Under the pieces are notes generated by a model. That model ran no database searches. It had not been told where the DNA came from and saw only the letters and a list, made by a program, of their open reading frames with translations. Positions 12,368 through 15,460 of a stretch of DNA of 64,000 bases are shown here, piece by piece (position 1 is the first letter of the stretch; the number at the start of each line of letters is the position of its first letter). Position numbers and translations under genes: made by a program. This DNA comes from a virus: positions 1 to 64,000 of the IMG/VR virus record IMGVR_UViG_3300042541_003876. One strand, written 5' to 3'.

Positions 12368-13044
12368 GTTACAGGCAGGTGTGGGTTAATTTAAAACGAA
12401 TATCAAAATGATACAAATTACAAACGCTGTTGAAAGATACGGCAAACTTATTATTAACGAACTAAAAGAAGCTAATATTAATTGTTGGATTGCTGGCGGT
12501 GCTTTGCGTGATTATTTCGCTGGGGTAAAAGTAAACACAGACTATGATTTATTTTTTCCTAATGAAATTGAATACGAAAAAGCAAAAGTATATTTCAAAG
12601 CAAAAGAATGTACGGTTAAATGGGAAAGTGATAATGGAATGAAAATAGTTTACAATGGCAAAACATTTGACTTGGTAAAAAAGTTTTTTGCAACTCCAAA
12701 AGAAACTATTGATGCCTTTGATTTTACTGTATCAATGTTTGCAGTAGATACTGAAAATGTTTATTATGGTGAAACTACATTTATGGACTTGGCTAAAAGG
12801 CAATTAATGATAAACAAGATTACTTACCCTGCTTCAACTATGAGCCGAGCTTTTCGTTATTACAAAAAAGGATTTTCAATGTGTTTAGGCGAAATGAAAA
12901 AACTTGTTGAAGCTATACAAGATATGCAAAAACCTGAACCAAAAAACGAAGAACAAAGTCAAAATGAAGAAGAAAAGTCAAGTGGTGATGATTTAGCGTT
13001 TTTTGTCGGCATTGATTAGCAGGGTGCTAACACTTGCCTGTAAC
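12368..13044 (+). mobile_element. Integron-like gene cassette A (nucleotidyltransferase)
   Basis: Left end GTTacaggcaggtgt (12368-12382) is the reverse complement (14/15) of right end acacttgcctgtAAC (13030-13044). A partial attC arm lies to the left (12284-12367). Confidence 0.75.
12408..13019 (+). CDS. Nucleotidyltransferase, CCA-adding/poly(A) polymerase head-domain type
   Basis: WIAGGALRDY...TDYDLFF (GGxxRD...DxD) and FDFTVS. Confidence 0.85.
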   Translation: MIQITNAVERYGKLIINELKEANINCWIAGGALRDYFAGVKVNTDYDLFFPNEIEYEKAKVYFKAKECTVKWESDNGMKIVYNGKTFDLVKKFFATPKETIDAFDFTVSMFAVDTENVYYGETTFMDLAKRQLMINKITYPASTMSRAFRYYKKGFSMCLGEMKKLVEAIQDMQKPEPKNEEQSQNEEEKSSGDDLAFFVGID

Positions 13045-13085
13045 TCGTGCATTTGCGCAACTTTAATAAAAAAATAAAAATATGA
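13041..13085. repeat. 45-bp repeat (attI-like site plus translation leader), copy 1
   Basis: taactcgtgcatttgcgcaactttaataaaaaaataaaaatATGa; also at 13472, 14143 and, partially, 15374. Confidence 0.9.
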
Positions 13086-13462
13086 ATAAAATTAAAAATT
13101 TCAATACAATGCGAAAAATAGAAGTAAAAATCAGACAAATTATTTGGGCTTTCAAACAATCATTAAAGCCTACAACTTATGACCTTGTTATTTATCAAGG
13201 CAAACAGTATTTTATTAAATCAAGTCTTACTAGGGAAAATGTTTGGAATCTTTTTGAAAAAGGAGAAAAAGAGCCAACGCACAGATACATTAAAGGTAAA
13301 GAATTGAAAGTTTTTCAATCAGTAAAACGATTTATTAATGTTTTCAAAAATCATTTAAGATTCCAAAAGAAAAGCTGGGACTTGATTGATTGTGGCAATC
13401 CAATTGGCACAAGGCTGTCTTACAATAATTCAGAGGATATCTATTTTGGGAGGTGGTTCTAA
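13082..13462 (+). CDS. Hypothetical protein (cassette B, left end lost)
   Basis: 126-aa ORF followed by attgccactAAC and repeat copy 2; first 7 codons identical to the ORF at 14184. Confidence 0.7.
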   Translation: MNKIKNFNTMRKIEVKIRQIIWAFKQSLKPTTYDLVIYQGKQYFIKSSLTRENVWNLFEKGEKEPTHRYIKGKELKVFQSVKRFINVFKNHLRFQKKSWDLIDCGNPIGTRLSYNNSEDIYFGRWF

Positions 13463-13471
13463 CATTGCCAC

Positions 13472-13516
13472 TAACTCGTGCATTTGCGTAACTTTAATAA
13501 AAAAATAAAAATATGA
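13472..13516. repeat. 45-bp repeat, copy 2
   Basis: One mismatch relative to copy 1. Confidence 0.9.
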
Positions 13517-13569
13517 GCATATTTAACCAAGACTTTTACCCAACTCCAGAAAATATAATTGCACAAATG
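13513..13569 (+). pseudogene. Truncated 5' end of a probable N6-adenine methyltransferase-like gene
   Basis: MSIFNQDFYPTPENIIAQM (the DFYPTP motif is typical of N6-MTase/DUF4942-like N-termini), then runs into attC-like sequence. Confidence 0.5.
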
Positions 13570-13628
13570 CCGATTAGGATTACAAAAGTTGAGGGTTATT
13601 ACCTCCGCCCCAATTTAACAAATACCTT

Positions 13629-14146
13629 GTTATCTGCATCTGCGGTTTTCAAGGCAGGAAGTTTCAAATTATTCACTAATAAATTAAAATAAAATGTCAG
13701 AAATTAAAGAACAAACAATGTTTGAAGAAATGAGAAAAAAAGGAAGTAGTATTCCTGATAAAGTAGAATATCTACAAGCCAATGGTTGGCAATGCTATAA
13801 TCATCACGACAACTGGGTTAAATCTACTTGGTCGGACACGGAAAAAGACGGTTCATTATTAGATTTAAACAAAGCATTTGAGCAATGCGTAAAAGAGCAA
13901 ATTGTTTTACAAGAAGCAATTAAAACACTATGCAATGCGTTGAAAGAAGATAAAGGGTTATATATCGCTTACCAAGCTAATATTGCTATGGCTTTCCAAG
14001 ATGAGTTTAATATACAGTCAGAAAAGCACGAAATGTTTACAAAGTGGTTAATGTTGGAAGGTGGATTGTACACAATAGCTAATAATGCAAGTCATAATTT
14101 CCTAAAACTTTTAATGCCGTAGGGTGGTAGCAGTTGCGCAGATAAC
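13629..14146 (+). mobile_element. Integron-like gene cassette C
   Basis: Left GTTatctgc (13629) is complementary to right gcagatAAC (14138-14146); partial attC arm at 13561-13628. Confidence 0.7.
13694..14122 (+). CDS. Hypothetical protein
   Basis: 142-aa ORF filling cassette C. Confidence 0.75.
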   Translation: MSEIKEQTMFEEMRKKGSSIPDKVEYLQANGWQCYNHHDNWVKSTWSDTEKDGSLLDLNKAFEQCVKEQIVLQEAIKTLCNALKEDKGLYIAYQANIAMAFQDEFNIQSEKHEMFTKWLMLEGGLYTIANNASHNFLKLLMP

Positions 14147-14187
14147 TCGTTTATTTGCGCAACTTTAATAAAAAAATAAAAATATGA
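14143..14187. repeat. 45-bp repeat, copy 3
   Basis: Two mismatches relative to copy 1. Confidence 0.9.
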
Positions 14188-14306
14188 ATAAAATTAAAAA
14201 TTTCTTTAAAGTGTTATTTTGCTCACACGAATATAGAGTAGCAAAATTTAATCATCGTTTTTACCAATGTAAAAAGTGTCAATACATAAAACAAAGAAGT
14301 ATATGA
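14184..14306 (+). CDS. Small putative zinc-binding protein, 40 aa (not in the ORF track)
   Basis: [40 protein letters not shown], with CxH...CxxC; ATGA overlap with the next gene. Confidence 0.65.
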
Positions 14307-14854
14307 AAACAAAAATTTTCTTCGACACAGAATTTACAGGATTGCACCAAAATACAACTCTAATTTCAATTGGATTAATTTCAGAATGTGGAAAAACTTT
14401 CTATGCTGAATTAACCGATTATGATAAAAGTCAAATTGACGATTGGTTGCAAAAAAATGTAATTGATAATTTAAAATTTAAAGATGAATTAAGTACACGT
14501 GTATTTTGGAATGATGGTGTAAATACAGAAATGTTTGGTGATACAGAAATGCTTAAAATGTTATTAAGAAAATGGTTAGAACAATTTGAAAGTATTGAAA
14601 TATGGTCTGATTGCCTTTCTTATGACTGGGTACTCTTTAATCAAATTTTCGGACACGCTTTTAATATTCCTGAAAATGTCTATTATATTCCATTTGATAT
14701 TTGCACTTTGTTTTATGCAAAAGGAATTGATGCAGATATTAGTCGTGAAGCGTTTGCGGAAATGTCAGAAGGTAGTCAAAAACACAATGCTTTGTGGGAT
14801 GCAAAGGTTATTCGTCAATGTTTTAACAATTTACAAGGTGTTGCTGTAAAATAG
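14303..14854 (+). CDS. DEDDh 3'-5' exoribonuclease (Rv2179c/DUF5051-like)
   Basis: [32 protein letters not shown]. Confidence 0.85.
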
Positions 14855-15023
14855 CCGATACTGTTAAATCTTTCATATTTTCAAATTTTGTTGAAAAGTA
14901 TTTATGTTTCCCTCATAAATAAGGGAAACAATCTGCAACTTAATGTATATCAATAACTTTAGTGGTCTTAAAACAGGCTGCAAACATATAGAATTAGAAA
15001 GTGCTAACGTCTGTTAAGATTGT

Positions 15024-15120
15024 CACTAACTGTTCTAGGCTTGGCGTTAGTGCTACCTTGCACGAACTTTGAATTTAGCACTAAACTATCTGGTGGCATT
15101 ACGCCAAACCCGTGTTATAG
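15024..15120 (-). mobile_element. Complete attC-like site
   Basis: cactAAC...ggcttggcgttagtgctacc / ggtggcattacgccaaacc...GTTatag; the arms pair with one bulged base; shares ttagcactaaac with the site at 6844. Confidence 0.75.
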
Positions 15121-15377
15121 GATAGTTTTATTTTTGTGGGTTGGCAATAAATAAATTTCAATTATGAGTAAATGGTTAGACAAAGAGGTTAAACAGCTAA
15201 TGATGTATGTAGAAGCATCAGATGATAAAACAATGGAAGAGCTTTATGAATATGTTCACCACATGATGTATAAAGAAGGTAATCATCCAGATTTTCCAGT
15301 TAGAACATTGTCGGCTGTAACTGCTAAAATTCGTAAATTTTGTCGGGAGCTTGGAAAAAAATAAAATTTCCTACAAC
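15114..15377 (+). mobile_element. Integron-like gene cassette D
   Basis: Left GTTataggatagttttatttt versus right aaaataaaatttcctacAAC (reverse complement gttgtaggaaattttatttt); followed by repeat copy 4. Confidence 0.7.
15164..15364 (+). CDS. Small hypothetical protein (Myb/SANT-like helical pattern possible)
   Basis: KWLDKEVKQL...RTLSAVTAKI; fills cassette D. Confidence 0.65.
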   Translation: MSKWLDKEVKQLMMYVEASDDKTMEELYEYVHHMMYKEGNHPDFPVRTLSAVTAKIRKFCRELGKK

Positions 15378-15460
15378 TCGTGCATTGGCGCGACTTTAAA
15401 TGTAATTAACTGATTATAAGCGCATATAAATTGCGTATTTTAAATATTAAAAAAAATAAA

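Follow-up and report, generated by a model that had tools for sequence, protein, structure and literature searches.

In classical integrons, the acceptor site attI is normally single copy, adjoins its integrase and is recombined by it with attC partners, the crossover falling at G|TT of a core box; the cassettes carry their attC along, and complementarity of the core boxes at the two ends of one cassette is the signature of the system. The pdif sites of Acinetobacter plasmids are 28 bp long, double stranded and without hairpins, and in these plasmids short, inverted recombinase-binding boxes delimit the gene modules. T4-type phages reportedly contain promoter-early stem-loop (PeSL) modules, attributed to Arbiol et al. 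2010, in which intergenic repeats flank early accessory open reading frames (ORFs) and are tied to their gain and loss; their action is ascribed to homologous recombination between near-identical copies, and they carry a recognisable early promoter. Here we describe a four-copy repeat, fused to a translation leader, in positions 1 to 64,000 of the IMG/VR virus record IMGVR_UViG_3300042541_003876, a crAss-like phage (this whole stretch of 64,000 nucleotides (nt) is referred to as the window), and compare it with these systems. Clusters of attC sites lacking integron integrases (CALINs) were reported in phages only in 2023, and the sections of that report drawn on here identify neither the acceptor site nor a dedicated recombinase of virulent phages (Qi et al. 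2023, PMC9892861), so that the entry of cassettes into phage genomes had remained open.

Scanned with up to three mismatches, the 24-mer AACTCGTGCATTTGCGCAACTTTA matches the window at 13042 (no mismatch), 13473 (one), 14144 (two) and 15375 (two), always on the plus strand and not once in 100 dinucleotide shuffles; the full 77,741-bp virus record, estimated to be 98% complete, holds no fifth copy. The copies and their leaders are:

13045-13061, plus strand: copy 1, the 17-nt site TCGTGCATTTGCGCAAC, type A, abutting the TAAC at 13041-13044
13062-13084, plus strand: copy-1 leader TTTAATAAAAAAATAAAAAT, A-rich and without a Shine-Dalgarno sequence, plus ATG 13082
13476-13492, plus strand: copy 2, GCGTAAC variant, with the same leader at 13493-13512 and ATG 13513
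14147-14163, plus strand: copy 3, GTTTA variant, with leader at 14164-14183 and ATG 14184
15378-15460, plus strand: copy 4 TCGTGCATTGGCGCGAC, type B (the form common to other phages), with the remainder of an intergenic module of ~90 nt that runs to ATG 15461

An earlier, sequence-only reading of the window had listed four copies, three of them continuing identically through a leader into the next ORF, with similarity on the left stopping at the AAC and with two GTT triplets 17 nt apart, and this description holds essentially throughout. The identical run-on of copies 1 to 3 passes through the leader to the ATGs at 13082, 13513 and 14184, and copies 1 and 3 keep their likeness over the first ~21 nt of their ORFs, which share the N-terminus MNKIKNF; copy 4 departs from the other three after ACTTTAA. 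Identity from copy to copy is 92-100% amid unrelated flanking cassettes, and in three copies the distance from junction to ATG is fixed at 37 nt, the element being intergenic and on the same strand as the genes. Near-identity begins at T/CAAC: each copy starts exactly after a cassette-end box, [A/C]TTG-NNNN-[T/C]AAC, and the left flanks share only this generic box, plus a weak GGTGnT in copies 1 to 3. The 17-mer itself ends in ATTGGCGCAAC, a cassette-end-like box that directly repeats the real cassette-end box 17 nt away, hence the spacing of the AAC/GTT triplets at 13042 and 13059. What had been taken for a possible degenerate copy at about 15407 is no separate site; it lies inside the copy-4 module, which is ~91% identical in the phage contig L021, and the TAAC reads TTAC there. 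Two candidate partners of the repeat were dropped: 13557-13577, considered as an inverted copy pairing with copy 2, encodes FYPTPENIIAQM, the start of a methyltransferase fragment, and the CACAAATG recurring in hairpin loops is the leader plus its ATG context.

The left edge of the repeat coincides with the end of homology to other phages, as seen for two of the units that precede it:

12368-13044, plus strand: cassette unit U1, with a nucleotidyltransferase-like gene at 12408-13019, bounded by GTTACAGGCAGG and CTTGCCTGTAAC
13096-13475, plus strand: cassette unit of ORF126, 87-90% identical to the phage contigs L015 and L016, ending in ATTGCCACTAAC

Positions 12282-13044 are 94.8% identical to the phage contig L005, which matches nothing else in 6000-22000 of the window, and this homology ends at ...CCTGTAAC (TAAC), exactly where copy 1 begins. 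The homology of the ORF126 unit ends at ...CCACTAAC, where copy 2 begins, and the three phages then carry three different sequences. Since the homology of the left-hand units to other phages stops exactly there, the AAC|TCG boundary is a real recombination junction, placeable only to within the AAC. The other end of the ORF126 unit looks different: L015 and L016 have the 5' box GTTAGTGGCAGT, and in the window the copy-1 module stands in place of this box and of the ~17 nt after it; that module extends to 13102 and is joined to the unit within a shared AAATTTC; the true start of ORF126 is probably ATG 13109.

In five other phage contigs, the final cassette of a hairpin-type array is succeeded by a related 17-mer, T..TG.ATTGGCGCAAC; two more arrays have the same kind of end immediately before the gene of an Xer-like recombinase, and the general form in which an array closes is TAAC followed directly by T..TG.ATT(G/T)GCGCAAC. 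The phages bearing the 17-mer have no other mutual DNA homology, and the proteins encoded downstream of it are non-homologous. The 17 nt after the TAAC are:

L021: TCGTGTATTGGCGCAAC
L028: TATTGTATTGGCGCAAC
L029: TACTGGATTGGCGCAAC
L005: TTATGGATTGGCGCAAT
L016: TATTCGCTTGACGAAAC
window, copy 4: TCGTGCATTGGCGCGAC
window, copies 1-3: TCGTGCATTTGCGCAAC

A second copy of the site, TCGTTTATTGGAGTAAT, follows another cassette end in L021. After the hallmark end [A/C]TTG-NNNN-TAAC, every listed hairpin junction reads TAAC|G, whereas the terminal junctions of L005, L016, L021, L028, L029, L012 and L015 read TAAC|T or TAAC|A and are followed by non-hairpin sequence; the exception is the integrase-proximal junction of the cultured Polaribacter phage Leef_1, TAAC|GCCCC. 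To judge from this distribution, the repeat belongs to a conserved, leader-bearing family of array-terminal sites and is placed as an attI would be. As the site always lies 17-90 nt upstream of the next gene's ATG, an insertion upstream of it would leave that gene's leader intact, in agreement with the sequence-only reading. The latter had also held that copies without a preceding cassette end would count against it; all those elsewhere, be they close copies (one in the metagenome contig L020, two in L021) or related 17-mers (L005, L028, L029 and L016), are preceded by cassette ends, and on this point it therefore stands.

An exact or degenerate motif scan of IMG/VR gave no match outside the window's own record, and the single match in a scan of GTDB genomes, on a Planococcus scaffold, lacks a preceding cassette-end box and was read as chance. 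Nine loci came from a looser scan of IMG/VR for terminal sites, and six were set aside as unrelated: five are one conserved high-GC phage junction, ...GGAGGGGTAAC + TCGTGTATTGGCGCGAC, read as a stop/start gene overlap, and the sixth, in a 295-kb contig, is an unexplained match. A separate observation concerns the first gene after the terminal site in the four integrase-less arrays (L005, 9680-9889; L016, 4426-4659; L028, 6910-7176 on the minus strand; L029, 3656-3850), which encodes a protein of 64-88 amino acids (aa) ending in LPF or CPF. The four proteins have no Pfam match and no mutual BLAST similarity, and only that of L029 matches a PHROG (phrog_25647, of unknown function, E=3.7e-05); the common ending may be a coincidence or the trace of a fast-evolving accessory factor.

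In L012, L015 and Leef_1, the last TAAC lies ~35-55 nt upstream of the start codon of an Xer-like tyrosine recombinase gene oriented like the cassette ORFs, and the L012 site, TATTATATATCTGAACC, resembles that of L028. The recombinases of the relatives are 266-276 aa long. On the integron-integrase model TIGR02249, the cut-off of which is 265, that of L012 reaches 139 bits, and the best solved relatives of the L015 enzyme are XerA/XerC-like, its match to IntI4 (2a3v) being split into two stretches; an IntI-type recombinase with the IntI-specific additional domain was found neither in the phage studied here nor in its relatives. A six-frame search of the whole virus record revealed no tyrosine recombinase (PF00589), and a Y1/HUH transposase (PF01797) is absent from all five records tested, this phage included. 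The sequence-only reading had proposed an attI mimic served by IntI. Its recombination target is consistent with the junction at the AAC and the array-terminal position, but the idea of IntI as the enzyme fails, given a phage without a tyrosine recombinase and relatives whose enzymes are Xer-like and below the integron-integrase cut-off. A side observation in L012 parallels the multi-copy state of the window: the integrase-proximal site and the first ~50 nt of the recombinase gene are duplicated 5 kb upstream (2024-2109 and 7000-7085, 86% identity), and the upstream duplicate again directly follows a cassette end, with the ATG reading ACG in this first copy.

Set against attI (e.g., attI1, with its L/R boxes and DR1/DR2 repeats), the site has the same position at one end of the array, the same double-stranded rather than hairpin form, a junction at a conserved AAC/GTT and a second, box-like direct repeat beside the crossover box, and in the relatives it stands immediately upstream of the recombinase gene. 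Unlike an attI, it is present in four copies in one genome and without a recombinase in cis (L012 has two integrase-proximal copies), and it shows no sequence similarity to known attI sites; the recombinases are Xer-like and lack the IntI-specific insertion, and the cassette ORFs are directed at the site and the integrase instead of facing away, which leaves no room for a Pc-type logic of expression. With no enzyme in cis, Xer-like enzymes in the relatives, ORFs facing the site and multiple copies, this is not an IntI/attI pair; the repeat rather looks attI-like in its position, and is probably so in its function.

In the arrays of the relatives, small ORFs alternate with long imperfect hairpins, each of which begins after a TAAC and stops before a GTTA, and such attC-like hairpins, with AAC...GTT feet and placed between single ORFs, occur in L005, L012, L015, L016, L021, L028 and the window. 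A unit starts with GTTA-NNNN-CAGT and ends with ATTG-N'N'N'N'-TAAC, where the variable bases are complementary between the two ends of one unit and not within a hairpin: the 8-9 nt beyond the GTTA at the start are the reverse complement of those before the TAAC at the end of the same unit. Box pairs complementary at 8-9 of 9 positions occur in every array, against 0.3-0.8 per locus in shuffled controls. The units with this hallmark number five in L016, all consecutive, four in L005 (5961, 7222, 7611, 9052), three in L021, two in L012, two in Leef_1 (3529, 4342) and three in the window, pairs inside coding sequence having been set aside in L005 and Leef_1; L028 has three at a looser threshold only, and the Polaribacter phage P12002L has one. 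Several cassette ORFs, one of them a methyltransferase gene, start in the loop of the upstream hairpin (L005, 7168 and 8987; L015, 4456 and 5715) and read through its 3' arm and the GTTA box, the recombination site being partly coding.

The P12002L unit has the same boxes and lies between methyltransferase genes of that phage, where GTTGGCAGTAGT and ATTACTGCCAAC stand on either side of gp37 and a hairpin comes next. It is part of a CALIN reported by Qi et al., who describe the recombination of one attC of this CALIN with attI1 under IntI1 (PMC9892861). Because a unit with the same boxes belongs to a reported CALIN, the hairpins here are of the kind already described as phage CALIN attC sites, and the surrounding cassette system is of a known kind. 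The likeness extends to the cargo, rich in orphan methyltransferases, and to the hosts of the arrays, virulent phages without IntI. On the other hand, the sections of that report drawn on here give no conserved array-terminal site or adjacent Xer-like recombinase for virulent phages and read an attI only in a Shewanella prophage (PMC9892861), and the terminal site described here is multi-copy and fused to a leader. Xer/dif and pdif systems share with our loci the Xer-like recombinases and gene modules bounded by inverted short boxes. Copy 3 and the preceding cassette end form a 33-nt near-palindrome, AGTTGCGCAGATAA-CTCGT-TTATTTGCGCAACT, with inverted arms of 11-14 bp and a 5-7-bp centre, and its TGCGCA..TAA arm resembles the XerC arm of dif. 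Unlike in pdif, however, most junctions here are long imperfect hairpins, and copies 1, 2 and 4 are not palindromic.

The repeats are also places where close strains differ. L020 is 99.6% identical to 7520-13102 of the window, resumes at 14121, and has a single site copy, with the ORF40 gene after it, in place of the three in the window. The block that it lacks is:

13103-14204, plus strand: 1102 bp with the ORF126 unit, copy 2, the ORF142 unit and one site copy

Copies 1 and 3 are identical over a 52-nt stretch, anywhere within which the breakpoint may lie, and exchange between two sites and homologous recombination both fit the indel. Taken together with the join of copy 1 by microhomology and the probable methyltransferase fragment after copy 2, the indel shows that the array of the window is partly decayed and rearranged. 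Assembly of four lake-water DNA runs yielded nothing longer than short contigs, without a joint at the copies; depth at the cassette-region copies was ~tenfold higher, which we attribute to cassettes common to other phages, and several loose ends place the leader in other contexts. Also in L020, at ~5810-6130 (after window position 14432), an RNase H/exonuclease-like gene is interrupted by a sequence with an HNH-type motif (CVDHNHTTGKVRGLLCDTCN); this looks like the insertion of a homing endonuclease, and the window is without it.

We are inclined, with confidence a little above even, to see in each copy the invariant acceptor-side half of a tyrosine-recombinase junction, belonging to an integron-like cassette system of Bacteroidota-type phages. 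A recombinase would bind the site, possibly to this day, and strand exchange at or beside AA|C would add or remove cassettes upstream of it. The right part of the site, an A-rich leader of Bacteroidota type with its start codon, would be retained by the downstream gene, which would thus remain translatable. As the crAss-like phage has no recombinase, the enzyme would have to come in trans, from the host or from a co-infecting phage that encodes an Xer-like integrase. For the three type-A copies, the best explanation is that blocks bearing a site were duplicated or re-inserted at the resident site, either through exchange between sites or through homologous recombination between copies; at least one right-hand join, that of copy 1 to ORF126, would have been made by microhomology. 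A conserved array-terminal site of this kind, found in at least six unrelated phage contigs and beside an Xer-like recombinase in others, would supply the missing acceptor half, and the 17-mer and the hairpin offer a testable pair of substrates. If the reading is true, it would account for the movement of anti-defence cargo (orphan methyltransferases, for instance) among unrelated lytic phages, crAss-like ones included, and would show that insertion upstream of a leader-bearing site keeps the downstream genes expressed. More tentatively, and at odds clearly short of even, freshwater and marine Bacteroidota phages may possess an integron analogue of their own, in which an Xer-like (non-IntI) recombinase would act on attC-like hairpins with 12-nt GTTA-NNNN-CAGT / ATTG-NNNN-TAAC boxes and on a double-stranded acceptor, TAAC|T..TG.ATTGGCGCAAC, within the 5' leader of a gene of the phage backbone; lytic phages without a recombinase would then trade single-gene cassettes (methyltransferases, nucleotidyltransferases and others) whenever the enzyme is supplied in trans, and an acceptor site that rides on mobile blocks would account for its multiple copies.

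A number of findings speak against an acceptor site. The genome combines four copies with the lack of a recombinase, although it is nearly complete by the above estimate. The block missing from L020 is flanked by direct repeats of 71-82 nt, for which homologous recombination is an equally good explanation, and the right edge of copy 1 was joined to ORF126 through the 7-nt microhomology AAATTTC, not by site-specific exchange. The left end of the U1 homology (12282) falls within a hairpin loop and not at a box. What L015 and L016 have in common of the ORF126 unit is limited to the stretch between GTTA and TAAC inclusive, the hairpins to its left and right being different: both boxes thus seem to be places of exchange, and the attC, which accompanies a classical cassette, does not travel with this ORF. 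Finally, the TGCATTTG of copies 1 and 2 fits five of the six specified positions of the Bacteroidota -7 box, TAnnTTTG.

The long direct repeats and the microhomology are what one would expect if the repeat were the phage's own promoter or leader module, set before accessory genes that are gained and lost between copies without any dedicated recombinase. The breakpoint inside an identical stretch, the similarity of copies 1 and 3 into the coding region and the lack of a recombinase agree with this account, and repeats that flank variable ORFs and contain the breakpoint of an indel are reminiscent of PeSLs. We nevertheless find it unlikely, since the left edge falls on the same nucleotide after unrelated cassette ends in every context (four times in the window, once in L020 and twice in L021), where homology amounts merely to a box of 11-12 nt with four variable positions, and since the related 17-mer closes arrays in phages that share neither other DNA nor their downstream genes. 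PeSLs differ on the same points, the edge here being fixed and conserved across phages, and the complementary end boxes of the units are not explained by homologous recombination. The copies could instead be inert, truncated 5' arms of attC-like hairpins left by a decayed imported array, with no role beyond providing a leader and an ATG. The 5' arms after TAAC in relatives do share a loose core (e.g., GGCTTTGCG, CTTGACGCA, ATTGCCGAAGG), the order arm, leader and ATG is the normal layout for the many cassette ORFs of relatives that start in a hairpin loop, and decay is visible in the truncated hairpin at 12282 and the methyltransferase fragment at 13513. Random truncation is not expected, however, to spare an identical 17 nt, each time lacking a 3' arm, in at least six independent phages, nor a consistent T or A at the first position where every listed hairpin arm has G, nor copies so alike among unrelated cassettes, and we deem such an origin improbable.

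A role in transcription has to be judged by similar evidence. A promoter or operator, read by the host RNA polymerase, the crAss-like virion RNA polymerase or a phage regulator and controlling small early genes, would suit the intergenic position, the strand and the fixed spacing to the ATG, as well as the 8-bp palindrome TTGCGCAA and the partial -7 box. The Bacteroidota consensus, reportedly that of Bayley et al. 2000, pairs the -7 box with a TTTG at -33, ~18-21 nt upstream. The best -7 matches here are TGCATTTG, TTTATTTG and TGCATTGG, with no conserved TTTG upstream of them, and a conserved -33 element is missing because the left flanks are cassette specific. No early promoter is known for the crAss-like virion polymerases, phi14:2 early transcripts having revealed no common upstream motif (10.1101/2020.03.07.982082), which leaves a phage-specific promoter some probability. 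We give it little credence all the same: the copies are confined to the cassette region and absent before the other plus-strand early genes, the ATTGG of the cross-phage form destroys the TTTG, copies 2 and 4 do not have the palindrome intact, and the recognisable promoters of this phage differ. The latter resemble the Bacteroidota -7 box type and, unlike the four-copy site, form an intergenic repeat family (2513-2549, 4040-4084, 4702-4744, 6674-6716 and 7459-7495) that reads TTG-N13-TAtATTTG and an A-rich leader on the minus strand, and in at least four of its five places it immediately precedes the start of a minus-strand gene. It is more doubtful still, and in our view very improbable, that the copies act in the RNA, as a processing site, terminator or stabiliser between the cistrons of an early transcript. 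Copy 3 with its left flank does fold into a 12-14-bp hairpin (z = -2.4 as DNA), and attC sites are described as weak terminators in the CALIN report (PMC9892861). That hairpin depends, however, on the cassette-specific flank, single-strand folds of copies 1, 2 and 4 are no better than those of shuffled sequences (z 0 to -0.8), and Rfam gives no match at gathering scores and noise alone at E<5. A 3' arm or GTTA partner was looked for at copies 1 and 3 and found at neither.

Beyond U1 and the ORF126 unit, the cassette region of the window contains the following features:

13513-13692, plus strand: 59-codon frame after copy 2, with the N-terminus DFYPTPENI, matching phrog_31814 weakly (E=0.0046)
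13629-14146, plus strand: ORF142 cassette unit, gene 13694-14122, bounded by GTTATCTGCA and CGCAGATAAC, complementary at 9 of 10 positions
15031-15113, plus strand: complete attC-like imperfect hairpin between TAAC (15027-15030) and GTTA (15114)
15114-15377, plus strand: ORF66 cassette unit, gene 15164-15364, ending in CCTACAAC directly before copy 4

As its N-terminus resembles the start of a DNA methyltransferase, the 59-codon frame is probably a fragment of such a gene, though the match is weak. ORF142 has no relative that we could find in IMG/VR, and the ORF66 unit is flanked by a 22-nt inverted repeat matching at 19 of 22 positions. Away from this region, a second complete attC-like hairpin, in minus-strand orientation, occupies 6844-6976 (within 6838-6982) after the minus-strand gene 6983-7384; it reads CCGCTAAC|GGTTTGCAGATTGCCGAAGG ... 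GCAATGTGCT|GTTATAAGC, and positions 6840-6927 of the window are 86% identical to a part of L021. The genome thus has a second, separate cassette junction.

The window represents a crAss-like lake phage with ~31% GC that encodes a Crassvirus muzzle protein (PF25731) and a DnaB helicase and has an ORF of 3963 aa; the copies lie among small plus-strand genes in its early/replication block. A search for backbone relatives through the 872-aa helicase-methylase gave a single match, with 36% identity. The 3963-aa ORF (36377-48268, minus strand) has no Pfam match and is far longer than gp66 of phi14:2 (2180 aa); judged from its position, it is presumably the crAss-like virion RNA polymerase. The gap that parts divergent gene blocks holds, at 10891-10958, a perfect-to-97% tandem duplication of 34 bp. 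The gene after copy 4 (15461-16276) consists mostly of ~20 tandem 24-nt repeats, each encoding the eight residues D/E-N-S-x-V-x-A-x, and matches phrog_15773, the function of which is unknown.

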